Shown: positions 3,081 to 38,213, numbered from the stretch's first letter. The stretch is 38,213 bases of DNA from a virus (IMGVR_UViG_2526164668_000029:1-38213), one strand, 5' to 3'. Translations and numbers: made by a program. The notes: generated from the sequence alone by a model not told the origin.

Positions 3081-3562
3081 GACAGCAGCCCTCCCACCGT
3101 TTTACTGATATCGCTTAAGGCAGACGTTGCCGTGTCCTGCAGATTATTCAGTTGCGCACTGAGATCACCGAACATATCGGACAGGGATTCATCCACTCGT
3201 TTGAGCGACAGGGTGAACTCAATCCGGCGCGGCATACCGTCGCGGAAAAACTCCGTTTTAGTCTGATTCAGTCCCTCAATCACATACATGCCGTAAATCG
3301 TGCCGCTGCCTTCAATCAGGGGCCATGCTTTCCCCTGTTCTGCCATCTGCTCCAGTGCCAGCAACGACAGCCTGCCGCCTGTTATTTCCGGCATAAGAAC
3401 ACCGGAAAGCGTCAGCATGTCGTTTTCCGGTCCCAGAAACTGCGTGGACGGACGTCGGTTTACCCGACTGTTTGCCGCATGTCGCCAGCTGCGTTGATAC
3501 TGCAGTTCCTGATACGGAACGGTGCGCAGCATAAACACGTACAATCCCAGCACCATCATCAT
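3077..3562 (-). CDS. U: tail protein U
   Basis: 161 aa, between T and D, overlapping stop/start with both. Confidence 0.85.
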   Translation of the reverse strand: MMMVLGLYVFMLRTVPYQELQYQRSWRHAANSRVNRRPSTQFLGPENDMLTLSGVLMPEITGGRLSLLALEQMAEQGKAWPLIEGSGTIYGMYVIEGLNQTKTEFFRDGMPRRIEFTLSLKRVDESLSDMFGDLSAQLNNLQDTATSALSDISKTVGGLLS

Positions 3563-6500
3563 GCGTCGTATCCCCCCTGATCGCTGTAGTTACTCCTGGC
3601 TTTTGCCTTCAGCCTGCGTTCACGTTCATCAAGCTGGCGTGCCACCTCCCGCGCAATATCCTGCGCACTTTGTCCTGGCTGCGTCTGAATGATGATCTGC
3701 GTCGGTGCCTCAATCCGTTGAACGAGCGGCACAGTGGCTGCGCGACTCACAATTGCTTCTCCACCTTTCGCGGGAAGTGCCAAAGGGTGCAACGGTGGAA
3801 GCTCTGCTGGCGCGGCAGCAACGCCCATCATTCCGGCAACAACGGCAGCCAGTGCAGCTGTATTTCTCCGGCTGGTCACATTTGCCGGGCCGTTAACAAT
3901 TTCCGGCCCGTTTTCACCGACGATGCCAAACTGCCCGCGCGGGATATACCCGCCGCTGTCATACATCCCCGCAAAGCCATATCCCCATGATGGAAAACCA
4001 CCCGATGGCATCATCACTTTACCGTCTGCATTCACCGTCGCAGGTTGCTGACGCGTCACGCTTTCCGGCAGTTTTGCCTTTGCGGCCTCTTTACTGACAA
4101 TGCCGAGCTTCTCCAGCAACCAGGAAACGCCGGATTTCAGGGAGTCCAGCGGATGCATGACCATATTCAGCCCTTCCGCCAGTGCCTCCCCGAATCGCCG
4201 CCCCATTGCCGCTGCGCTCTGCAGTTCGGCAGAGGTCGACTTAACGGGCGTCAGCAGATCATTAAACCAGCCCCACAGCGCCTGCACTTTGTCGCCAATC
4301 CACTGGAACACGGGCTTAAGCGGTTCGAACGCTGCACTGATGGGACCTGCCGCCGCTTTGAATCCTTCCACCACGCCACCGAGAAATGCGGTGATGGGTT
4401 GCCAGTATTTCCAGACAACCAGCGCCACGCCCGCCAGTGCAGTAACCACAAGACCTATCGGACTGAGCAGAGCACCTAACAGACCAGATATGGCATACAG
4501 GGCAACGCGCAGCATCGCCAGTGGACCAGATGCCAGTACTCGCAGCACCGTGCCTGCGGCGGCCAGTCCACCGCGCAGTACCGCCAGAGGATTCATAAAC
4601 ATCACAGCAACAGCACGTAAACCGGATAATCCAGACAGCAAAAGTGCAACCGGCGCACCTGCTATAGTTTTCAGGACATTTCCCGTCAGTGATGCCGTGC
4701 GGCGCAAAGACGACAACGGCGCAGTAAGTAAACCTGCGGCGTTGCCCGATGAAGCAAGCCCGCGTCGCAGCAGTGCCAGTGGTGCGCCAGCCAGCCAGGA
4801 CAACGCGCTGCTGGTTCGAGTTACTGCTGCCGTAACGGAAGATAACGTTTTGATACCCAACACAGAGAATCCCAGACGGATCACTGCCAGCGGCCCCAGC
4901 ACTGCAGCCAGCGCCACCGCTAAGGTGCCGAGGCCGACGGTAACCGCAGCCACAACAGCCGATGCTTTCATCAGTGTGCCTGTCAGTTCCGGGTTAGCTT
5001 CCACCCAGCGACGCAACGCCCCCGTGACGCTTTTCACCGTGTACAGAATATCCATCAGCGGCTGGCGCAGCGTTTCGCCCAGGCTGCTGAAGGTGTTCTG
5101 CGCTCCGGTTTTGACCAGCAACCACTGCGCAGAAAGTGAATCCTTGTTAATGTCGGATTCTTTCTGCATGGAGCCGAGCGCATCATTGCCCGCTGTCAGT
5201 TTTAACTGACGCTGCAGTTCCGGCAGGTTGTTTGCCAGTTTCGCCGCGTCATCGCCAAACTCTTTACCAAACAACATAGTCATGGCAGACAGGCGCTTGT
5301 CCTGCGGCAGCGCGTTTACCTTCTCCAGCACGCGCTGGATGGTTCCCATCGCATCCTTCGTCATCTGCTTTTCAATCACTTCAGGATTGAGTTTCAGCAG
5401 ATTCATCCCTTCAAAGAAACTCTTGCTTTGCATGGTGGCAATGGACAATTCACGCACCATCGCGTTTGCTGCACTGGCTGCAACCTCTGGCGCAGCGCCC
5501 AGTGTCAGGAAGGTGGAACCCAGCGCCGCCGCTTTACGATAATCCAGACGGTCAGCCACACCGCCCAGACGTTGCATCACATCAATGATGTCTGCCCCTT
5601 TCGACATGGCGTTATCATCCAGATAGTTCAGCGCATCACCGAGCTGTTCAATATTGCGGGTGGGGATTTTGTAGAGCTGGGCGATTTTCCCCAGACTTTC
5701 TGACAGTTCATCCGCTGGCAGCTCAAAGGCTGTTGCCGCCTTTGCTGCCGTACTGGCGAAGGCCAGCAGGTCACGTTTCTGATCTTCCCAGCTGTCGTCA
5801 GGGTTTGCGACGTTCATGCGCGCACCACCTTCAACCAGTGCAGCGAAGTCCACCGCACCGTTTTCCATCGGCAACTGTTCGCTGGCAGCCTTGATGGCAT
5901 CCTGCATTTCATAAAAACGTGCAGTGCGGTTGCCATTATCGTCACGCAGACCATTGACCTGCTTTGCCACACCTTTCATGGCATCTTCCATGCTGGTATA
6001 GCTTTTTACTGCCGCCATCACTGGCGCACCCATTGCCAGCCCTGCAGCCGTGGTGGTGGCTCCGGCACCTGCAATACGATCACGCACCTCCAGCGAACGG
6101 GTATAACTGGCACGCGCTGCATTCATCCTGCGCTGAGCTTCCCCCAGTCGCTTCAGCCGCGCCTCCTGTTTCGAAAGTTCCTGGTTATAACGTGATGTTT
6201 CACGGGCTAAACGGGCAGTTGCTCCCGCATCGTCTTTCGCAGAAATTCCCGCCCGGTACAGTTCAGCACGCACAAGCGCCGTCTGCTGCTGCAGCTTTTT
6301 CTGGCGTTCTTCCAGGCGCTGAACAGCCAGCCGTTGACGGCCCAGAGCAACAACCTGACGTTGCGAAGGCGGCCCCATCGCTCCCAGTTCCTGACTGAGC
6401 AAATTTGCACGCTGGCGGGCATAGTTCAGCCTGTCGCCTAATTTCTGATTTTCTGCCTGCAGCTTTCGGAAGCTGTCCAGACTGCTCCCGGCCTGATCAA

Positions 6501-6636
6501 GCTGCTTTATTGCATCGCGGGATTTTTTGACAGCAGCAGCCAGTTCTCTTGAACTGGCCTGCGCAGATCGAAATGGGCGGGTGAGCTTGTCAACCGCATT
6601 AAGAATGACCTGCAGACGCAGGTTGTTATCACTCAT
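3559..6636 (-). CDS. T: tail tape-measure protein T
   Basis: 1025-aa Ala/Leu-rich ORF with coiled-coil N-terminus and hydrophobic central segments, in the gpT position. Confidence 0.9.
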   Translation of the reverse strand: MSDNNLRLQVILNAVDKLTRPFRSAQASSRELAAAVKKSRDAIKQLDQAGSSLDSFRKLQAENQKLGDRLNYARQRANLLSQELGAMGPPSQRQVVALGRQRLAVQRLEERQKKLQQQTALVRAELYRAGISAKDDAGATARLARETSRYNQELSKQEARLKRLGEAQRRMNAARASYTRSLEVRDRIAGAGATTTAAGLAMGAPVMAAVKSYTSMEDAMKGVAKQVNGLRDDNGNRTARFYEMQDAIKAASEQLPMENGAVDFAALVEGGARMNVANPDDSWEDQKRDLLAFASTAAKAATAFELPADELSESLGKIAQLYKIPTRNIEQLGDALNYLDDNAMSKGADIIDVMQRLGGVADRLDYRKAAALGSTFLTLGAAPEVAASAANAMVRELSIATMQSKSFFEGMNLLKLNPEVIEKQMTKDAMGTIQRVLEKVNALPQDKRLSAMTMLFGKEFGDDAAKLANNLPELQRQLKLTAGNDALGSMQKESDINKDSLSAQWLLVKTGAQNTFSSLGETLRQPLMDILYTVKSVTGALRRWVEANPELTGTLMKASAVVAAVTVGLGTLAVALAAVLGPLAVIRLGFSVLGIKTLSSVTAAVTRTSSALSWLAGAPLALLRRGLASSGNAAGLLTAPLSSLRRTASLTGNVLKTIAGAPVALLLSGLSGLRAVAVMFMNPLAVLRGGLAAAGTVLRVLASGPLAMLRVALYAISGLLGALLSPIGLVVTALAGVALVVWKYWQPITAFLGGVVEGFKAAAGPISAAFEPLKPVFQWIGDKVQALWGWFNDLLTPVKSTSAELQSAAAMGRRFGEALAEGLNMVMHPLDSLKSGVSWLLEKLGIVSKEAAKAKLPESVTRQQPATVNADGKVMMPSGGFPSWGYGFAGMYDSGGYIPRGQFGIVGENGPEIVNGPANVTSRRNTAALAAVVAGMMGVAAAPAELPPLHPLALPAKGGEAIVSRAATVPLVQRIEAPTQIIIQTQPGQSAQDIAREVARQLDERERRLKAKARSNYSDQGGYDA

Positions 6637-7119: not shown

Positions 7120-7635
7120 TCAGAGGCCGAGGGCGTTGCGGTGCGCTTCCATCAGGTCCACACCGTCCACAATTTCCACCATGTTGATAAGGTCCACTTC
7201 ATAGAGCACCTCACCATTGATAGTCAGCTTCGCGTAGCTGTTGGTACTGGTCACTTTGGTGGTGTTGCTTTCGCCCGTCTTCCACTCGCCGGAATCCACT
7301 TCTTTGTGACGTCCACGCACCACAAGCTCCACGGCCTGCACTTCTCCGGTATCGTCACGCTGGATAGAGCCGGTGAAGCGCAACTGGATGCCATCCACCG
7401 TGGCTTTGCCCATCTGTTTAAACAGCAGCAGTTCAGTACCACCAATGGAAAATTCTGTGTCCAGCGCACTGTCATCAAGCCCCAGATCCACATCCACTGC
7501 ACCCGGCATTCCGCCGCCGCGATACTTCTCATATTTGCGGGTGAATTTCGGCAGCGTCAGCGACTCAACGATCCCCTGCCAGTTGTTCCCGTCATTAAAC
7601 AGGTTCAGGTGTTTTAATTTGCGTGGTAAAGCCAT
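7120..7635 (-). CDS. FII: major tail tube protein FII
   Basis: 171 aa, MALPRKLKHLNLFNDG... N-terminus, downstream of FI. Confidence 0.9.
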   Translation of the reverse strand: MALPRKLKHLNLFNDGNNWQGIVESLTLPKFTRKYEKYRGGGMPGAVDVDLGLDDSALDTEFSIGGTELLLFKQMGKATVDGIQLRFTGSIQRDDTGEVQAVELVVRGRHKEVDSGEWKTGESNTTKVTSTNSYAKLTINGEVLYEVDLINMVEIVDGVDLMEAHRNALGL

Positions 7636-7644
7636 GTTGTCCCC

Positions 7645-8817
7645 TTACGCGCTGACCTGGCTAGAGAAATTCACCAGGTACTGATCGGTGATGCGCTGAC
7701 GCAGCATCAGGTTTTCAAGTGGCGGCACTGGCGTGTAGTCGTAGTCGATGGTGAGTTTTCCGGCTTTCAGCGTGTCTTTGTCGTTCACCGACTCATCCAG
7801 CCAGCAATCACCACCAATGAGATAGCCCTGACTGACCAGGCTGCGCATTTTGGCGCGGATACCCTCGATAATGTCGCGGGCCAGCGACGGGTTAAGCGGT
7901 TTATCCACCGCCCACATGTGTGCTTCTGCCATCGTGTCCATCAGCACCTGCGCCGTGCGGGTGTAGTTTTCGAAGGCAAAGAGCGGGTCATCACTCAGGC
8001 AGCGGGAACCCCAGAAGCGGAAACCGTCTTTACGCACAAGCGTGGTGACGTCGTTCTGGTTCAGCAGACCTGCATCGGTTGCCGGGTCCTGCAGATCCCA
8101 GAACACATCAGCAGAAATTCCGGTGACACCGTTCACGCCCACGTTGGACAGGCTTTTGTGCCATCCGGTCTGCTCGTCAATTTTGGCGCGCAGACCAAGC
8201 GCACGGGCGGTGGCATATGCCGTTGCTTCGGCATTCAGCACCGTGTCCCAGCCAGTAAAGTCAGGCCAGATCAGCATCCCTTCGCGCTGGCTGAAGTTTT
8301 CACGGTAAGTGATCGCCTCCTGTACCGTCTTGCAGCCATACGCTGACAGGTAAGCAAATCCACGCAGGCTTTGCGCCACGCTCAGCAACTCAGTAGCTAC
8401 CGCCTTGGTGTCGTGGCCTGGCACGCCGAGAATGCGCGGTTTAACGCCGAGCTGTGACTGGGCAGATAACAGGGCTTTCATGCCTGTTTTTTTACCTTCA
8501 GCAGTCACTGCGCCGATGATATTGGTCGTGGTTTCTTCTTCCGTTTCACCCTGCGGCACACGCACAACAACGGTCACGGGTTTTGCCTGGTCAGCGATGG
8601 CGTCCAGCGAACGGGCCAGCGTACCGGACTCACCCGCTTTACCGCTGGCAGTCAGCACATCAGTGATCAGCACGGGTTTATTAAGAGGAAACATTTTTGC
8701 ATCGGCATCATCGCCCGTGCAGACCATACCCACGATGGCGGTGCTCACCGTGGTAATGGATCGGGTGCCTTCGTTGACTTCAACAACGCGCACTCCGTGG
8801 TGGTAATCCTGAGCCAT
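7645..8817 (-). CDS. FI: contractile tail sheath protein FI
   Basis: 390 aa, recognisable as P2 gpFI (…WPDF..WDTV…[12 protein letters not shown]…). Confidence 0.9.
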
Positions 8818-8893
8818 AGTGGCGAACCTCCTGATTGGATTAGGCTTCGCCCTATGTTGAAGTGATTGTGCCTGACAAACAGCTAAGCGCAGT

Positions 8894-8911
8894 TGTGTCG
8901 TTATTCACACA
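8894..8911. promoter_or_regulatory. candidate Ogr-dependent late promoter element upstream of FI
   Basis: TGT-N12-ACA dyad (TGTgtcgttattcacACA) about 80 bp upstream of the FI start. Confidence 0.45.
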
Positions 8912-8959
8912 AAATAACGGTATTTGTCCGCTTACAGGAAAAATCAAAATAATGCTGAC

Positions 8960-9526
8960 TCAGGGCGATTCATTGTTCTCATTCGCCGGAAATTTTCTAT
9001 AAATGGTAGAAACGCCCACATCAAAAATCAGTGCAATACGCTGTCTTGATTCTCCGGCCTCGAGTAAACGTCCAATCTGTGCCCACTGTTCGGTAGTCAA
9101 CTTAGGACGGCGTCCACCTACTCTGCCTTTAGCACGAGCTGCAGCCAGCCCTGCCCTGGTACGTTCAACTATCAGTTCGCGTTCCATTTCAGCCAGGGCA
9201 CCCATGACATGAAAAAAGAAACGGCCCATTGGGGTACTGGTATCAATACTGTCAGTCAGACTTCTGAAATTCACGCCGCGCTGGCGCAACTCTTCTATCA
9301 GAGTAACAAGATGCCGCATACTGCGCCCCAACCTGTCCAGCTTCCAGACAACCAGTGTGTCACCTGCCGATAGTGTCCTGAGCAGTTTTTTAAGCCCCGG
9401 TCTGTCGGACTTAGTACCACTGATTTTGTCCTCAAAAATCCGCTCACATCCCGCGCAGTTCAGTGCATTACGTTGCAAATCGGTGTTCTGGTCATTTGTT
9501 GACACGCGTACATAGCCAATAAGCAT
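8960..9526 (-). CDS. serine DNA invertase (Hin/Gin/Cin/Pin family)
   Basis: MLIGYVRVSTNDQNTDLQRNAL... is the Gin/Hin N-terminus with the catalytic Ser; C-terminal HTH. True start is the internal Met at 9526, preceded by an in-frame upstream extension in the ORF track. Confidence 0.9.
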   Translation of the reverse strand: MLIGYVRVSTNDQNTDLQRNALNCAGCERIFEDKISGTKSDRPGLKKLLRTLSAGDTLVVWKLDRLGRSMRHLVTLIEELRQRGVNFRSLTDSIDTSTPMGRFFFHVMGALAEMERELIVERTRAGLAAARAKGRVGGRRPKLTTEQWAQIGRLLEAGESRQRIALIFDVGVSTIYRKFPANENNESP

Positions 9527-9553
9527 GATCAATCCCCTGAATAAAAACCGGGG

Positions 9554-10102
9554 ATGATGCCAGTTAGCCATTATCTCTGCATTTTCATAAACGTTGGTTT
9601 GGGAGAAGGCTCTGCATTACCTGTTGGTGTGCCTGTTCCGTGGCCTTCAGTCACACCGCCAACAGGCTGGCTGAAATGCAACGGTGCGGCTTTTTCTGCT
9701 GAAGAATACCCGGAACTGGCAAAGGCTTACCCGACCAATAAATTGCCTGATTTACGCGGTGAATTTATTCGTGGCTGGGATGACGGTCGCGGGATTGATA
9801 CTGGTCGCGCTTTGCTTAATTGGCAGCCACACACAATTTTGGACCATGCACACTATATGGAATTATGGACAGGGGACGGACTCGCCGCAGGAAGTGCACG
9901 GGAAGGAGTAAACCCAGGAATACTGGCTACATACGGTGACGGGGGAATAGTTAAAACGGACGAACCCGGTCTTAAGGTGCCTTCCTCACTACGAGCTATT
10001 AGTACTCGTAGTGTAAAACGTTTTGGTGAAATTAGTGGAAATGTAGGTACAGAAACTCGTCCTCGTAACATCGCTTTTAATTATATCGTAAGGGCCGCAT
10101 GA
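9554..10102 (+). CDS. alternative tail-fibre C-terminal cassette, expressed only after inversion
   Basis: Downstream of the crossover motif (encoding GLGE) it reads ...LPVGVPVPWPSVTPPTGWLKCNGAAFSAEEYPELAKAYP, a typical fibre tip; the in-frame stub upstream of the crossover is not a real N-terminus. Confidence 0.65.
   Translation: MMPVSHYLCIFINVGLGEGSALPVGVPVPWPSVTPPTGWLKCNGAAFSAEEYPELAKAYPTNKLPDLRGEFIRGWDDGRGIDTGRALLNWQPHTILDHAHYMELWTGDGLAAGSAREGVNPGILATYGDGGIVKTDEPGLKVPSSLRAISTRSVKRFGEISGNVGTETRPRNIAFNYIVRAA
9583..9608. repeat. left crossover site of the invertible tail-fibre segment
   Basis: ttttcataaacgttggtttgggagaa is an inverted copy (22/26) of 11563-11588 and resembles gix/hix sites. 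Confidence 0.6.
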
Positions 10103-10704
10103 TGAATAAAGCTGTATTAAATAGCGAACTCATCACCACAAAGGCGGGAGACATTACCGTTTACAATTATGATGGTGAGACACGGGAATATATTTCCACA
10201 TCAACTGAATATCTTGCTGTGGGTGTCGGTATCCCGGCATGTTCCTGTTTAGATGCTCCTGGCTCATATAAAGCTGGTTATGCAATTTGCCGTTCTGCAG
10301 ATTTTAACTCATGGGAATATGTGCCAGACCATCGCGGTGAAATCGTCTATAGCACCGAAACAGGAGAATCAAAAGAAATCACAGCTCCGGGTGATTACCC
10401 TGAAAACACGACCACTATCGCTCCATTTACGCCATACGATAAATGGGATGGTGAGAAATGGGTGACCGATACTGAGGCACAGCATAGCGCAGCAGTCGAA
10501 GCGGCAGAAGCACAGCGTCAGTCACTGATTGATGCTGCAATGGCTTCCATTAGTCTGATTCAACTGAAATTACAGGCCGGGCGGAAACTGACGCAGGCAG
10601 AAACAACCCGGCTTAACGCTGTGCTGGATTACATTGACGCGGTGACTGCAACAGATACCAGCACCGCGCCGGATGTCATCTGGCCTGAACTGCCGGAGGC
10701 GTAG
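10099..10704 (+). CDS. tail fibre assembly protein for the alternative cassette
   Basis: 201 aa; C-terminal motif LNAVLDYIDAV...STAPDVIWPELP shared with the convergent assembly gene. Confidence 0.75.
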   Translation: MMNKAVLNSELITTKAGDITVYNYDGETREYISTSTEYLAVGVGIPACSCLDAPGSYKAGYAICRSADFNSWEYVPDHRGEIVYSTETGESKEITAPGDYPENTTTIAPFTPYDKWDGEKWVTDTEAQHSAAVEAAEAQRQSLIDAAMASISLIQLKLQAGRKLTQAETTRLNAVLDYIDAVTATDTSTAPDVIWPELPEA

Positions 10705-11119
10705 GCCATTCAATATCTGGAGCACTGGAGATATCAACCAGTTCCAGTGCGTCCAGATAATCCAGCCATAAATTATATTGTTCCAGCTCGTCACCTTTCA
10801 GACGACCAATAGCAGCTTTGCCAGGCCACTGATGGGTATTGATGTAGGTATTGACTTCAGAAACCAAAGATATTTTTTTCATTTCAGCCGTCAACACCTC
10901 ATCCTCTTTTGAAGGGGGTGGGGAATTAATCCATACTGGCAGTCCTGAACTGTCTGCGCCAATTTCTTTCCCTTCTGGATGCAGCCCAAGAAATTGCTCA
11001 TATGTTTCTCTGGTAATTTCAATAACATCATCAGGAAGCGTTCCCGCATCCTCATATTCTGGAAACAATTCTTGCAGATAAAAACTTTTACTTCCGGGTG
11101 AAAAGAATACTGAGTTCAT
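10676..11119 (-). CDS. tail fibre assembly protein (gpG-like)
   Basis: 147 aa directly downstream of H; C-terminal LWLDYLDAL...SSAPDIEWP motif. Confidence 0.8.
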   Translation of the reverse strand: MNSVFFSPGSKSFYLQELFPEYEDAGTLPDDVIEITRETYEQFLGLHPEGKEIGADSSGLPVWINSPPPSKEDEVLTAEMKKISLVSEVNTYINTHQWPGKAAIGRLKGDELEQYNLWLDYLDALELVDISSAPDIEWPTPPAVQAR

Positions 11120-11121
11120 TC

Positions 11122-12624
11122 TTACCGTCCAATGATTAACGCTGAGACGCTGGTATCTGAAGGAAAGGCTGCATTCAGTGGTTTGTCGACTTTGAACACA
11201 ATCGTATTATTCCCCCTGACAGCGGCAAAAGAACAAACTGCAGTCGCGTATGAACCTGTAATATTACTGGATACACCACCATAAGCTGTTGTTGATACCA
11301 GAGGGATAACGCCCAGCACCTTATTAGGAAATACAAAGGGCAATGTGGCTGTGGCAATATAAGACTTATTAGAGCCTGTAATGGCATAAGCATTATCAGT
11401 CATTCCATTCATCGCCACTGGACCGCTTATACTTACAGTAACCATCTGAATGATTAGCCCGTCAGGTTGACGAATCACAAAATTTCCATTGCCACCAGTA
11501 ACCGTCCAGAAAGACATATCAGGGATTTGGTTTTCCCCGTTGCCCACATTTCGTTTTGCCGCTTCTCCCAAACCAAGGTATGTGAGAAGACCAGCTACAT
11601 CCTTTCCACTCAAATTAGTCAGCGTATTGTCCAGCGGTTGTTTACCTGCCAGCGCATTAAGCATTGTCGTGGCAAAGTTCGGGTCATTCCCCAGCGCTGC
11701 CGCCAGTTCGTTCAGTGTATCCAGTGCCGCAGGTGCAGAACCCACCATTGCCGCAATCGCCGATTTCACAAATGCCGTGGTGGCAATCTGTGTATTGTTG
11801 ACCGACTGTGCCGCAGTAGGTGCGGTTGGCGTTCCGGTGAGTGCCGGACTCGACAGCGGCGCTTTCAGTGCCAGCGCATTGTTAATGGTGGTACTGAATT
11901 TCGGATCATTGTTAATGGCTGCGGCTATTTCTTTCAGCGTGTCCAGCGTGGCTGGCGCACCATTAATAAGAGCCGTCAGAGCCGCCTGAACAAACGCGGT
12001 GGTCGCAATCTGCGTGGTGTTATTCCCTGCGGCTGGCGTTGGCGCTTTGGGTGTCCCGGTAAACGTCGGACTTTCTTTGGGTGCATACTGTGAATGCGGG
12101 TCCGGTGCGGCAAGATGTTTTGCCATCTGATCATCCGCGTACACCTTCAGCTCCAGTGCCTTGTCATCCACATACTTGCGGGTTGCCAGCACTACGGCAG
12201 GGTCGATTTTCAGGGTGATATTGTCCGTGCTGCTGGTAATCAGCACCATGCGCACGGTCTGAGTGCGCCCGCTACCTTCAGCCAGTTGCGGCTTATAGCT
12301 TTCCGGGCAGTTGCCCACGGCAATCAATGCCCCGGACTCATCAAACAAGCCCACTTCACGTATCCACCAACCGCCCTCGTTTTCAGGGATCACCTGTTCG
12401 GCAATAATCTGGCTGCTGTTCTGCGGGTCGATATAGAGCATATTCAGCGCAGCCCGGCGTTTCTCATTTACCAGTGCAGTCTGCTTTGAGTCTGGCGTTG
12501 GCAATACTCCGCCGCCATCGCCGACCGCCATATGGGTAATTTTTAGCGGCACACCGAGCGCGGCGGCGCTGGCAAGTTTCGCCGCGCCAATATCCGTCAG
12601 CAGGGTATAAAATTTTGTGCTCAT
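11122..12624 (-). CDS. H: tail fibre protein H (currently expressed variant)
   Basis: 500 aa with repeated ...TTQIATTAFV... and ...DTL.E.AAA..NDP.F... motifs typical of P2 gpH; crossover site lies within its 3' third. Confidence 0.9.
   Translation of the reverse strand: MSTKFYTLLTDIGAAKLASAAALGVPLKITHMAVGDGGGVLPTPDSKQTALVNEKRRAALNMLYIDPQNSSQIIAEQVIPENEGGWWIREVGLFDESGALIAVGNCPESYKPQLAEGSGRTQTVRMVLITSSTDNITLKIDPAVVLATRKYVDDKALELKVYADDQMAKHLAAPDPHSQYAPKESPTFTGTPKAPTPAAGNNTTQIATTAFVQAALTALINGAPATLDTLKEIAAAINNDPKFSTTINNALALKAPLSSPALTGTPTAPTAAQSVNNTQIATTAFVKSAIAAMVGSAPAALDTLNELAAALGNDPNFATTMLNALAGKQPLDNTLTNLSGKDVAGLLTYLGLGEAAKRNVGNGENQIPDMSFWTVTGGNGNFVIRQPDGLIIQMVTVSISGPVAMNGMTDNAYAITGSNKSYIATATLPFVFPNKVLGVIPLVSTTAYGGVSSNITGSYATAVCSFAAVRGNNTIVFKVDKPLNAAFPSDTSVSALIIGR
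11563..11588. repeat. right crossover site of the invertible tail-fibre segment (inside H)
   Basis: ttctcccaaaccaaggtatgtgagaa, inverted relative to 9583-9608; encodes LTYLGLGE at the constant/variable junction of H. Confidence 0.6.
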
Positions 12625-15094: not shown

Positions 15095-15112
15095 TGTATC
15101 AGTGCTGATACA
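15095..15112. promoter_or_regulatory. candidate Ogr-dependent late promoter element upstream of V
   Basis: Perfect palindrome TTGTATCAGTGCTGATACAA containing TGT-N12-ACA in the S-V intergenic region. Confidence 0.5.
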
Positions 15113-33351: not shown

Positions 33352-34383
33352 ATGGAAAAAAGCATTAGCACATTTATGTACCTATCCGTTTTATTAGGTT
33401 GTATATTCTTATTTATAAAATATCGACTTTATGTTCTCGATCATAGAAGCCTGTTCCAACAACCCTTGTTCTGGGCTGCAATAGGCCTACCTTTATTCAC
33501 CAGCCTTTACTTTGGTTCTTTTGTCTGGATAGATAAAATACACTCTTTTAGTCTTACAAGTCACGGTTATGAGAGATTTTTAGATATCTCGAAATTACCA
33601 TTACTCATCCTTGCATCTGCAGTACCTTTAGTTTCAATAGTAAACAACCTACACAGAACCAAACAAACAGAAAAACAGATCTCAGAGGCAGAAAGGAAAA
33701 ACAGGGTAGATTTATATTACAACCACATGAAATTTCATCTTGATTTATATAAAAAAATCGAAGGAAAAAGAATAGGCAGCTACTACCCGGTTCAGGAAGC
33801 TCAAGCTGAAGCAATCTACCAACATTTTATAAAACATCCACAAGAACTATATAGAAAAGCATACCCACAATCTACGCCTGATGATTCTCAACAATTAGAT
33901 ATTAATGAGCAATTTGTTATTGATTTACACAAATGTTGGGTAGAAATCAACGCAAGACTCAAGCAATTATCCGAGAGTGAAAATCAAATACATCCTACAG
34001 AGGAACTTTGCACAACAAAGATGAGAATATTTGTAGGAGTTATGATTATTTATGAAAAAACTTGTAAACTGTTGTGTTTAGGTGGATTTCATTATAAAAA
34101 GTCATTTGTAATAAATGATAGTTATAATAAATACCAAGTTTATTCACCATTTTATGATTTTGGCACTCTGTACGAATCACTGCAATCCTTAGAAGAGATA
34201 ACCTACGCCTTCTTGGATACTTGCAGAAATGAAGTGGTAAACTTGTACTTCCCTATAGAAGATAAAATTTTGATATATGGTGAAGGGATTCTAGAGAATT
34301 GGTTCAAGTATTCTCAGTTCTTGATCACTATAGCTTATCAACCCGCCAAGATGTCTCGCTTACCCCAGCTGAGACGCGATTGA
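33352..34383 (+). CDS. hypothetical 3-TM membrane cargo protein between int and the attachment repeat
   Basis: 343 aa, very AT-rich; three N-terminal hydrophobic helices then a soluble domain; ATG 2 nt after the int stop. Confidence 0.7.
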   Translation: MEKSISTFMYLSVLLGCIFLFIKYRLYVLDHRSLFQQPLFWAAIGLPLFTSLYFGSFVWIDKIHSFSLTSHGYERFLDISKLPLLILASAVPLVSIVNNLHRTKQTEKQISEAERKNRVDLYYNHMKFHLDLYKKIEGKRIGSYYPVQEAQAEAIYQHFIKHPQELYRKAYPQSTPDDSQQLDINEQFVIDLHKCWVEINARLKQLSESENQIHPTEELCTTKMRIFVGVMIIYEKTCKLLCLGGFHYKKSFVINDSYNKYQVYSPFYDFGTLYESLQSLEEITYAFLDTCRNEVVNLYFPIEDKILIYGEGILENWFKYSQFLITIAYQPAKMSRLPQLRRD

Positions 34384-34498: not shown

Positions 34499-34544
34499 TA
34501 TGTAGGAATTTCGGACGCGGGTTCAACTCCCGCCAGCTCCACCA
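34499..34544. repeat. prophage attachment-site direct repeat (distal copy)
   Basis: Exact 46-bp copy of 1015-1060. Confidence 0.85.
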
Positions 34545-34709: not shown

Positions 34710-35939
34710 ATGGCAAAAATCGCTAAGAAGCTCACTGACACTGAAATCAAAAGCACCAAGCCAGCCGATAAAGAAATCAACTTGTTTGACGGTGATGGTC
34801 TGATTCTACGAATCGCTCCTTTGGCGAAAGGAGGCAAGAAAAATTGGTATTTCAGGTATGCAGTACCAGTGAGCAAGAAAAGAACCAAAATGAGCCTTGG
34901 GACATATCCTCACCTTACCCTTGCAAGAGCCAGAGCCTTACGTGATGAATATCTCTCCTTTCTGGCAAATGGTGTTGATCCCCAAATCCATAACAACGAT
35001 AAGGCGAAGGCATTAAAGAGTGCTACTGAGCACACTCTCTAAGCCGTAGCGCGGAAATGGTTAGATGAGAAGGTAAAGACATCAGGTATCTCACAAGACC
35101 ATGCAGCAGACATCTGGCGCAGCTTAGAGAGAAATGTCTTTCCCGGTCTGGGTAATGTCCCTATCAATGAGATCCGACCTAAGCTCTTAAAACAACACCT
35201 TGATCCTATTGAGCAACGAGGCGTATTGGAAACTCTACGCCGTATCATTTCACGTCTGAATGAAATCTTCCGGTGGGCAGCTACTGAAGAACTTATTGAG
35301 TTCAACCCGGCTGACAACCTTGGTCAAAGATTCAGTAAACCAAAAAAGCAAAATATGCCTGCCCTTCCCCCAAGCGAATTGCCAAGGTTTATGGAATCTT
35401 TGACGAATGCGTCAATCCGGTTGGAAACACGTATGCTAATTGAATGGCAATTGTTGACATGGGTTCGTCCGGGTGAAGCCGTTCGCGCAAGGTGGTCTGA
35501 TATTGATACAACCAACAGCATTTGGAACATTCCTGCTGATTTCATGAAAATGAAAAAGCTTCACAAAGTTCCTTTGAGTAAAGAAGCTTTGCGCATCCTT
35601 GAATTAATGAAATCAATAAGTGGGCATAGAGAATGGGTTTTCCCCAGCATAAAAGCGCCTCTTAATCATATGCATGAACAAACAGCCAACGCAGCTATCA
35701 TCCGAATGGGGTTCGGAGGCGAGCTTGTAGCTCACGGTATGCGTTCTATTGCACGAACAGCGGCAGAGGAGTCTGGTAAATTCAGAGCTGAAGTTCTTGA
35801 GGCAGCGCTTGCCCACTCGAAAAAAGATGAAATTATCGCAGCATACAATCGTGCAGAATATCTGATAGAGCGACAGAGTTTGATGCAATGGTGGAGTGAT
35901 TACGTTCAAGCTCAAAGATCAAATGCTCTGGTAGCCTAA
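34710..35939 (+). pseudogene. P4/CP4-57-type tyrosine integrase interrupted by an in-frame TAA
   Basis: N-terminal part (to 35042) and catalytic part (35226-35939, HGMRS...AYNRAEY) are in the same frame, separated only by TAA at 35040-35042; the read-through translation is continuous and IntA-like. Confidence 0.8.
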
Positions 35940-36464: not shown

Positions 36465-38213
36465 TTATGGTAGCATCATTGATACATAATCCACACCAAT
36501 CCTTGAGCTATACTGAGACGCTATAGCCTGATATCTTTCTGCATAACCAGTTCTCAGTTGAGATTTAAGTTTGAGTCGGACAGGAACATTTTGCACGTTG
36601 CCATCCATATTACTTAAAAACACGGCAGAAATAATATTTTTTTCTTCGCCATCAACTGTTGTTCCATGATTCAACACCACCATATAATCAACAACAGGAA
36701 GCGTTTTATCCCCTTCGAAAATAGAGAGATATTTTCTTTGATTTTTATGCATTACATATATATATTTCGAATGTTCAGCAAATGGCAATGCTTTACTCTG
36801 ACTGGCGTTAAAAAGCTCCAGAACTTTAATGAGCCTGTGCGGACTTAATCTTACATGGTGAGGGTCGTTACCCTGAGTAGGAACCAAATCACATGCCGCA
36901 GATACACATAAATACCATTTGTTCGACTCTGTATCAAAGAAAATAGTGCCAGTAGAAATATGACCATCTTCAAAATTCTTTGAAGACAAATTCATATTTA
37001 AAGCATGATACATTTCGTGATAAGTATCATTATTTGATGGCAGATCCATTTTTGAAGAGCAATATTGGAGCAATGCAGCAACTCCGCTGTTAGCGTATTC
37101 ATTTGAATAGCTATCAAAAACACTTTTGATAAATTCATCCAGCGTATTATTATTTTTAAGTCTTTGATAAAGCTCTTCTGATAAATTACCAAATACAAAG
37201 TCAATATTTCTACATCTAATATCAGGCGAGTCTGATTTTAATATCTCATTTAACCACGCAGCTTGACCGTAATGATCGTTAGCCAAATGATTTACAAAAG
37301 ATAAAGCCTCAGCTTCGATTGCATTCTGAATTTCAGATTTTATTAACTGATAATAAGATGGTTTCCATTCAATGAGAGAATCATTGAGAGTTTGCCAAAT
37401 CCTATCTCCATCGTTTTCATGATCATCTTGAACCTTATGAAATAGGGAGACAAAGATATTACCACATTGAATCCATTTTACTCCGCTTTCATCACCCCGA
37501 ATGACATTGCCAGATGTGTTGCTAGAAATAATTGCATTTCTAGACACAGCATATTCTGCAATCATTTTTGCAATGAAGTTTTTATCCTTTTGATCCTCCA
37601 ACACAGCATCATCATGTATTAATCTTTTAATTCTTCTACAAGGCTTACTGTCTTTAATATAGGCTATTGTTTCATCTCTTGTGAGAGCTTTATTACCATT
37701 ATCATTTAAGTTCGGTAATACAACGTCTTCCCAATAACTTTGGACATCTTCATTATCGTAGTCAATGATCAAGCTGTTGATATCCAGAGCACCTTTGAGA
37801 GTCGATGATATCTGCATCCAAACCGTTTCTAAATTCTCTCTAGTATATATTACAATCATATTTAAATGATCGGAGTCTTTCAAATCTTGTAATAGTTTAA
37901 GTGTTTTATCAGGTGCATTATTATCAAGATGATAATCTACAATAATAAGATCTGATTTTCTAATCCGATCCACATCGAAATTAACAGAACCATTGTCAAC
38001 ATCACAAATCATATTTTTAGATTGAAAAAAGCTCTCAAGAGTAGCGGCTCGTTTAGATGAGTCAATTTTGTTGTAGTCTAAATCAACTTCGTTATTCAAC
38101 GCCCTGATTGATTCAGAATACGTCAGAAAATCGTCATCAATCATGACAACGGAACGAATTGCATTTTCGCAGAAAGTTTTCTGGACAAGAGAATTATAAT
38201 TTGCCACTGTCAT
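36465..38213 (-). CDS. hypothetical 582-aa protein with receiver-like (REC-like) N-terminal domain
   Basis: AT-rich ORF; N-terminus VVMIDDDF...DLIIVDYHL...NMIVIYT matches the acidic-pocket, phospho-Asp and Thr positions of a CheY-like receiver fold; remainder unassigned. Start codon sits at the window edge. Confidence 0.7.
   Translation of the reverse strand: MTVANYNSLVQKTFCENAIRSVVMIDDDFLTYSESIRALNNEVDLDYNKIDSSKRAATLESFFQSKNMICDVDNGSVNFDVDRIRKSDLIIVDYHLDNNAPDKTLKLLQDLKDSDHLNMIVIYTRENLETVWMQISSTLKGALDINSLIIDYDNEDVQSYWEDVVLPNLNDNGNKALTRDETIAYIKDSKPCRRIKRLIHDDAVLEDQKDKNFIAKMIAEYAVSRNAIISSNTSGNVIRGDESGVKWIQCGNIFVSLFHKVQDDHENDGDRIWQTLNDSLIEWKPSYYQLIKSEIQNAIEAEALSFVNHLANDHYGQAAWLNEILKSDSPDIRCRNIDFVFGNLSEELYQRLKNNNTLDEFIKSVFDSYSNEYANSGVAALLQYCSSKMDLPSNNDTYHEMYHALNMNLSSKNFEDGHISTGTIFFDTESNKWYLCVSAACDLVPTQGNDPHHVRLSPHRLIKVLELFNASQSKALPFAEHSKYIYVMHKNQRKYLSIFEGDKTLPVVDYMVVLNHGTTVDGEEKNIISAVFLSNMDGNVQNVPVRLKLKSQLRTGYAERYQAIASQYSSRIGVDYVSMMLP

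Follow-up and report, generated by a model that had tools for sequence, protein, structure and literature searches.

Can the tail-fibre gene of a P2-like prophage be switched between two alternative tips by inversion of a piece of the prophage's own DNA? The question is raised by a viral stretch of 38,213 nucleotides (nt) (IMGVR_UViG_2526164668_000029:1-38213; the whole of it is hereafter called the window), in which the fibre gene H (11122-12624, minus strand; 500 residues, with a Phage_tail_fib N-terminal domain, Pfam 6.1e-65) and a gene for a serine DNA invertase (8960-9526, minus strand; 188 residues, Pfam Resolvase 2.9e-53 and HTH_7 1.7e-15) stand on either side of a second set of fibre genes. 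We consider it very likely that H is split here by site-specific inversion of the Pin/Gin/Cin type, which would give the prophage two alternative fibre tips. A preliminary description of the locus had proposed just such an invertase-controlled fibre switch, and this interpretation is borne out by an intact enzyme and intact sites, by an in-frame fusion of H to the second tip and by the occurrence of both orientations in public genomes. The part of H that stays constant, residues 1-350 (11575-12624, minus strand), lies outside the segment that inverts and is collinear in both orientation states.

The boundaries of the segment are set by a pair of recombination sites. A repeat finder returned an inverted repeat with arms of 27 nt at 9582-9608 and 11562-11588, 85% complementary and with 1953 nt between them, within which we read two sites of 26 base pairs (bp), each from the outside inwards as outer half, core and inner half. 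Site 1 (9582-9607, plus strand; TTTTCATAAACG-TT-GGTTTGGGAGAA) lies 56 bp upstream of the invertase start, and site 2 (11563-11588, read from 11588 to 11563 on the minus strand; TTCTCACATACC-TT-GGTTTGGGAGAA) is embedded in H, where it covers codons 346-354. The inner halves are identical (12/12) and the core dinucleotide, TT/AA, is the same in both, whereas the outer halves agree at 8 of 12 bases and differ at four; all half-sites fit TTNTCNNAAACC. When the pattern TTNTCNNAAACCNNGGTTTNNGANAA was searched with up to three mismatches, only two matches were recovered from the 38,213 bases, and both are these sites. Shuffled sequence gave a mean of 0.01 matches, and two matches arose in none of 100 shuffles, so the pair is real and not a product of chance. 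Further sites of the kind that make up a shufflon were sought in the window by repeat and pattern searches and none was found, which leaves a plain two-state switch.

Comparison with the actual records of Mu, P1 and the e14 element of E. coli K-12 places these sites among those of the family. The e14 site adjoining pinE (TTTTCATAAACG-TT-GGTTTGGGAGAA) is identical to site 1 at 26 of 26 positions, and the other e14 site (CTCTCGAAAACC-TT-GGTTTGGGAGAA) has the same inner half and core as in the window. The P1 sites cixL (CAATCCTAAACC-TT-GGTTTAAGAGAA) and cixR (TTATCCAATACC-TT-GGTTTAAGAGAA) share the TT core, and the two Mu gix sites, which are alike (TTATCCAAAACC-TC-GGTTTACAGGAA), follow the same pattern around a TC core. 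The inner half of site 2 encodes GLGE, residues 351-354 of H, and the inner half of site 1 encodes the same four residues as residues 15-18 of an open reading frame (ORF) on the plus strand.

Between the core dinucleotides lie 1981 bp (9595-11575), which hold two fibre cassettes facing each other. In the orientation found in the window, H continues across site 2 into a variable tip of residues 351-500 plus stop (11122-11574, minus strand), assigned to PHROG 12714 (7e-48) with a weak match to Gp53-like_C, and is followed by a gene for a TfaP-like chaperone of 147 residues (10676-11119, minus strand; Caudo_TAP 6.8e-28, PHROG 188), which is 56% identical to e14 TfaP. On the other strand, a silent alternative tip runs for 168 codons from GLGE to its stop (9596-10102, plus strand); it is StfE-like, carries a Collar domain (Pfam 5.6e-15), belongs to PHROG 523, tail collar fibre (3.3e-71), and is 60% identical to e14 StfE. 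Its own chaperone is TfaE-like (10099-10704, plus strand; 201 residues, Caudo_TAP 5.2e-33, PHROG 105) and 93% identical to e14 TfaE. The two Tfa genes are convergent and overlap by 29 bp, and their products are 31% identical over the last 80 residues. No similarity between the current and the alternative tip was detected by BLASTP, and the two are assigned to different PHROG families, a dissimilarity that fits with binding to different receptors. Homology of the cassettes to those of Mu, P1 or P2 was considered and set aside: BLASTP of tips and chaperones against Mu S/S'/U/U', P1 S/Sv'/U/U' and P2 H/G gave no matches at E<0.01, and the cassettes are e14-like instead. The preliminary description had drawn two 26-bp inverted sites around some 2 kb, one in H and the other by the invertase gene, with a GLGE junction at the head of each variable region and a C-terminus plus assembly gene on either strand, and it had called for the sites to be aligned with those of known systems; the layout described above agrees with it throughout, down to the GLGE junction in both frames, and in the alignment with pix, cix and gix both sites have the same TT core.

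The silent tip also has an upstream in-frame ATG, which creates an ORF at 9554-10102 (plus strand). Annotation pipelines label this ORF in many genomes as a separate "phage tail protein" or "hypothetical protein." It is most likely the silent half of the fibre gene and not a free-standing gene.

The enzyme that would act on these sites is a close homologue of characterised invertases. Homology to Gin, Cin and Pin places its start at the ATG at 9526 (MLIGYVRVS), overruling the ATG at 9571 that would give the longest ORF. The protein is 85% identical to e14 PinE, 77% to P1 Cin and 75% to Mu Gin, and it matches the solved structure of Gin, 3UJ3, at 1.8e-92. Like other members of the Din subclass it is a small serine recombinase with an N-terminal catalytic domain and a C-terminal helix-turn-helix, and the catalytic Ser9 is present together with R7, D64, R65 and R68. 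The enhancer-dependent subclass is marked by basic residues of helix B (Hin K47, K/R48 and K/R51) and by residues of the DNA-binding domain (Hin Q151, R154 and L155), all of which have been tied to activation by Fis and the enhancer, and a wild-type His at Hin 107 marks an enzyme that is not hyperactive (PMC3798978). The invertase of the window has K46, K47, R50, Q150, R153, L154 and H106, in a numbering that equals that of Hin minus one. Judged by these features, it is an intact invertase of the Pin/Cin/Gin/Hin (Din) subclass.

Evidence that the segment inverts comes from other genomes. A version of the segment flipped in silico, with the exchange placed at the central TT, served as query against every complete E. 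coli genome. Strain PSS-08-2 contains the flipped 3.9 kb from end to end, and only 1 of 3901 bases disagrees; this base (window position 11740) lies outside the segment. Over the same span, the unflipped window differs from PSS-08-2 at 1468 positions, and the best full-length match to the unflipped window among the complete E. coli genomes reaches 96.4%. The whole prophage is about 99.9% identical to that of PSS-08-2 and is collinear with it save for the segment. When the point of crossover was slid along the sequence, only the core dinucleotide or the identical inner arm was compatible with the data. The interval of exchange thus begins at the core dinucleotide, and the outer half-sites remain with their flanks in the flipped state, as the staggered cleavage of a serine invertase predicts. 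The flip joins residues 1-350 of H in frame to the alternative tip, and the resulting fibre of 518 residues is identical to the one annotated in PSS-08-2.

Neither orientation is rare among relatives. Among close relatives with complete genomes that cover at least 80% of the query, 20 are oriented as in the window and 30 the opposite way. The pig isolates 1604D011 and 1504D004 have equal genome lengths and the same coordinates for the locus, with flanks that are 100% identical over the 9.8 kb compared, and differ in orientation. Related segments are also present, flipped, in phages 500465-1 and Kp4845-2, where the breakpoints coincide exactly with these sites. Separately, the E. coli sequence NZ_OU342919.1 holds two related modules, at 7150-11038 and 4890936-4894824, which stand in opposite orientations.

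Inversion of closely related loci has been documented experimentally. Using whole-genome sequencing to detect inversions and the polymerase chain reaction (PCR) to confirm them, Goldberg et al. found that the e14 segment inverts in K-12, with about 51% in the forward state (approximately 51:49), and that three prophage loci of enteropathogenic E. coli (EPEC) E2348/69 invert, two of them in P2-like prophages (PMC4272514). One of these EPEC loci (NC_011601, 2977580-2979467) is a near relative of the present one: its cassette is 90-94% identical, its invertase 80%, and its invertase-adjoining site matches site 1 at 25 of 26 positions. It has been shown to flip (PMC4272514), and it is a truncated remnant from which the constant part of H is missing. 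In EPEC the forward state dominates, at 93%. The other P2-like locus of EPEC is a shufflon with three sites, built on 215-bp repeats, whereas the window has two short sites only.

Regulation of the switch can be approached through the enhancer and promoters expected of such a system. The P1 record annotates a recombinational enhancer at nt 19-90 of cin. The homologous stretch of the window (9437-9508), within the 5' end of the invertase gene, is identical to P1 at 56 of 72 positions (78%) and to e14 pinE at 63 of 72 (88%), and it is presumed on this homology to be a Fis-binding enhancer. Near its ends lie two G-N13-C cores, at 9491-9505 (gene nt 22-36) and 9442-9456 (gene nt 71-85), with centres 49 bp apart; both are conserved in Mu and e14. 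Enhancers of this family act in cis; they span about 65 bp, bear Fis sites at both ends and are found early in the invertase gene, some 100 bp away from the closer recombination site. Here the homologous stretch ends about 86 bp from the centre of site 1. By analogy with the family, inversion would presumably depend on Fis and the enhancer.

As for transcription of the fibre genes, the dyad TGT-N12-ACA occurs only seven times in the window, and four of these occurrences (8894, 15095, 21003 and 21061) fall in gaps where late promoters are expected from P2, namely the regions upstream of FI and of V and the one between the divergently oriented capsid and terminase genes. The dyad upstream of V (15095-15112) is presumed to mark an Ogr-dependent late promoter. 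With promoter function drawn from what is established for P2, and with the operon order V-W-J-I-H-Tfa taken from the annotation of PSS-08-2, this promoter would drive the whole operon and hence whichever cassette is joined to H. By the same analogy, a cassette would be expressed only while joined to the late operon. Candidate hairpins at which the V operon might terminate lie on the minus strand at 10672-10658 and 9565-9546. A simple scan near 9400-9600 found no sigma-70-like site on the plus strand ahead of the silent cassette, which is plausibly promoterless.

Not all of the evidence points toward an active, Fis-dependent, host-range-altering switch, and several observations must be set on the other side of the balance. 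The stretch homologous to the enhancer also encodes the most conserved part of the invertase protein, and a test of synonymous sites, in which identical codons were counted among the synonymous-eligible codons 7-30 and in the rest of the invertase gene, returned no clear excess (10 of 19 against 45 of 112 in the comparison with cin, and 8 of 22 against 44 of 104 with gin). For these two reasons the enhancer is treated here as an inference. A simple sigma-70 scan near 9400-9620 found no convincing promoter for the invertase on either strand, and its totals were no higher than in shuffled sequence. The evidence for both orientations comes from a comparison of genomes and not from reads or PCR products of the source strain, and that this particular lysogen flips would follow from it by extension. 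Finally, a change of host range upon inversion would follow by analogy with known systems.

Two of these points, evidence from genome comparison in place of source-strain reads and a scan that found no recognisable invertase promoter, could also be taken to mean that the module is a fossil which no longer flips, with the orientations in the databases being old states fixed by descent. The 93% forward state in EPEC lends this idea something further, in that flipping can evidently be slow or biased. We nonetheless regard a fossil as distinctly improbable. The window and PSS-08-2 differ by one base over 3.9 kb and their prophages are about 99.9% identical throughout, which makes the flip between them very recent; the pig isolates differ in orientation between flanks that are 100% identical; every catalytic and regulatory residue that was checked has been kept; and site 1 is the very sequence, 26/26, at which e14 flips in K-12. 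The orientation difference might also have arisen without any invertase, through RecA-mediated exchange between the repeats or through an error of assembly. Inverted repeats can recombine in the host or collapse in assemblers, and the 16 additional differences within the segment of the two pig isolates, described below, may signal a problem of consensus or polishing. The longest run of identical bases shared by the arms is 15, however, which is much too short for RecA to exchange efficiently, while a repeat of 27 bp poses no problem to modern assembly. Given so short a shared stretch, and breakpoints that recur exactly at these sites in many independent genomes and in phages, an invertase-free origin is very improbable indeed; that the interval of exchange starts at the core dinucleotide speaks against it as well.

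A different objection accepts the inversion and disputes its beneficiary: the switch might be kept for the bacterium, as a source of diversity in tailocin-like particles or for some other host trait, and not for the host range of a viable phage. According to references 46 and 49 of PMC4272514, P2-type tailocins such as carotovoricin Er and xenorhabdicin rely on the same inversion, and the EPEC locus that flips is itself a truncated remnant. The prophage in the window looks complete in its gene set, however, and 45-bp att repeats stand at both its ends. It is accordingly unlikely that the host has domesticated it, and we would rank this as the least probable of the explanations considered here.

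If the invertase-driven switch operates as its relatives do, the following sequence of events can be envisaged. The Ogr-dependent late promoter upstream of V would transcribe the constant part of H and continue through the 26-bp site into the segment. In the present orientation, H ends in the 150-residue tip and is followed by the TfaP-like chaperone, and the Collar tip and the TfaE-like chaperone would remain silent on the other strand. Dimers of the invertase would bind both sites, cut at the central TT and rotate one pair of subunits by 180 degrees, presumably within a complex that includes a Fis-bound enhancer on the first 90 or so bp of the invertase gene. Assembly of such an invertasome, cleavage at TT and subunit rotation are all proposed for this locus from what is established in related enzymes. 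Religation would fuse residues 1-350 of H in frame to the other tip, giving the fibre of 518 residues with the other chaperone downstream. A lysogenic population would therefore release phage with two types of fibre and, presumably, two receptor specificities.

How does this system stand in relation to those already known? It is a member of the family of Din invertases and tail-fibre switches, of a kind already described; the same gene set is carried by RefSeq and phage records in many genomes, and it is annotated in the phages Cartapus, 500465-1 and KP12. This kind of system can thus be called well described, and essentially the same sequence is on record. The preliminary description had likened it to the G segment of Mu and the C segment of P1, which is apt as to mechanism and layout; in sequence, the closest relative is the P segment of e14 with its invertase Pin (in K-12: pinE, stfE, tfaE, tfaP and stfP/ycfK). 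The gene order of e14 is the same as here, with the constant fibre part followed by the two opposed pairs of tip and Tfa and then by the invertase. The two differ in that the fibre genes of e14, a defective lambdoid element, have decayed (stfE carries a pseudogene annotation), whereas the window holds what is apparently a complete P2-like myovirus in which the module is joined to an H-type N-terminal domain of P2. They differ further in the outer half of the fibre-gene site and in the expressed tip, which is a different sequence.

The G segment of Mu shares both layout and logic with the present locus, in that the constant part, Sc, lies outside and two convergent cassettes of tip plus chaperone lie inside. 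Like the invertase gene here, gin stands beyond the far site, runs in the direction of the fibre gene and has the site upstream of its 5' end. The gix sites are likewise 26 bp and follow the same half-site pattern, but they are identical to each other and have a TC core, whereas the sites of the window have a TT core and differ in their outer halves; the G segment, moreover, measures about 3 kb against 1.98 kb here. The cix sites of P1 have the TT core and match 10 of 12 bases of the inner half-site. The cin gene of P1 points towards the segment and is overlapped at its 3' end by cixL, whereas the site in the window lies upstream of the invertase gene, as in Mu; the C segment is larger (4.2 kb) and its tips are unrelated to those described here. 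Salmonella Fels-2 with Fin and carotovoricin Er are also counted among the invertible fibre loci of P2-like type; both appear in the reference list of PMC4272514.

The module sits within what appears from its gene content to be a complete P2-like (Peduoviridae) prophage of E. coli, about 33.5 kb in length and integrated at ssrA, the gene for transfer-messenger RNA (tmRNA; 698-1060). Its ends are a perfect 45-bp direct repeat (1016-1060 and 34500-34544) that matches the 3' end of ssrA. Genes for integrase, CI, replication, capsid, terminase, lysis and tail were assigned by correspondence with the annotation of PSS-08-2. The minus-strand tail block includes the tape measure gene (3559-6636), the tail tube gene FII (7120-7635), the tail sheath gene FI (7645-8817) and the baseplate genes I and J. 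The invertase module occupies the gap between the chaperone gene, which corresponds to G of P2, and FI; the far edge of this gap is given by the dyad at 8894-8911, upstream of FI. The related locus of EPEC E2348/69, likewise in a P2-like prophage, takes the same position. In P2, this gap accommodates fun(Z) as well as the activator site of promoter pF, and a survey of hotspots in P2-like phages noted that a DNA invertase is frequently present at the Z/fun locus, accompanied by inversion of adjacent genes (bioRxiv 10.1101/2024.10.15.618418).

Other parts of the prophage and its surroundings also bear genes that may be cargo. Between the portal gene and a DinI-like gene, an ORF of 469 residues (23915-25324, minus strand) matches the anti-phage defence protein of PD-T7-1 (PADLOC 1.3e-196), with no match in a Pfam search; by appearance it is defence cargo, carried in a known hotspot of P2. 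Another ORF, of 343 residues (33352-34383, plus strand), lies in the interval from the integrase gene to the right att repeat and belongs to PHROG 17460, where its function is unassigned; searches of Pfam and PADLOC gave no match, and it is possibly a cargo gene. Past the right att repeat there follow a short ORF of the phage-integrase family (35226-35939, plus strand) and a large ORF with a Response_reg_2 domain (36465-38213, minus strand) that runs off the end of the window, an arrangement that suggests a second island stacked at ssrA. In the related prophage of E. coli 1604D011, a gene for a TIR-domain protein adjoins the baseplate gene V (9278-9853 of the extracted locus), and this may be another variable position for cargo.

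Several observations may bear on exchange between modules of this kind. PSS-08-2 carries a second, different P2-like prophage near fieF/pfkA, with a module about 90% identical to the first (NZ_AP027679.1, 18260-21729), and its cell thus holds two cross-compatible invertases and four sites. The pig isolates 1604D011 and 1504D004 differ, apart from the flip, by 16 substitutions within about 900 bp of the segment (4758-5643 of the extracted 1604D011 locus). At these 16 positions, the alleles of the two isolates match the window at 6 and 10 and the second PSS-08-2 module at 10 and 5, and they form a mosaic of variants found in other modules. These substitutions could reflect gene conversion from one paralogous module to another, or else an artefact of polishing. 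Among relatives, moreover, cassettes have been reshuffled. It is conceivable, though in our estimation unlikely, that in cells with several P2-like prophages the invertases act in trans on each other's segments and that paralogous cassettes undergo gene conversion as the segments flip; the second module at 90% identity, the 16 mosaic substitutions and the reshuffled cassettes would then all be accounted for. Were it true, the switch would be a hotspot that makes new combinations of tip and chaperone, beyond a toggle between two states.

Taken as a two-state switch, the module is a standard bet-hedging device by which one lysogen gives rise to two fibre types, and it carries little weight beyond the need for correct annotation. 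In this respect, the ORF at 9554-10102 should not be annotated as a gene of its own, and either orientation in an assembly should be understood to reflect a mixed population. Prediction of host range for the prophage should weigh both the fibre of 500 residues and that of 518. As one sequence recorded in both states with a difference of a single base, the locus provides a clean natural example of its kind.

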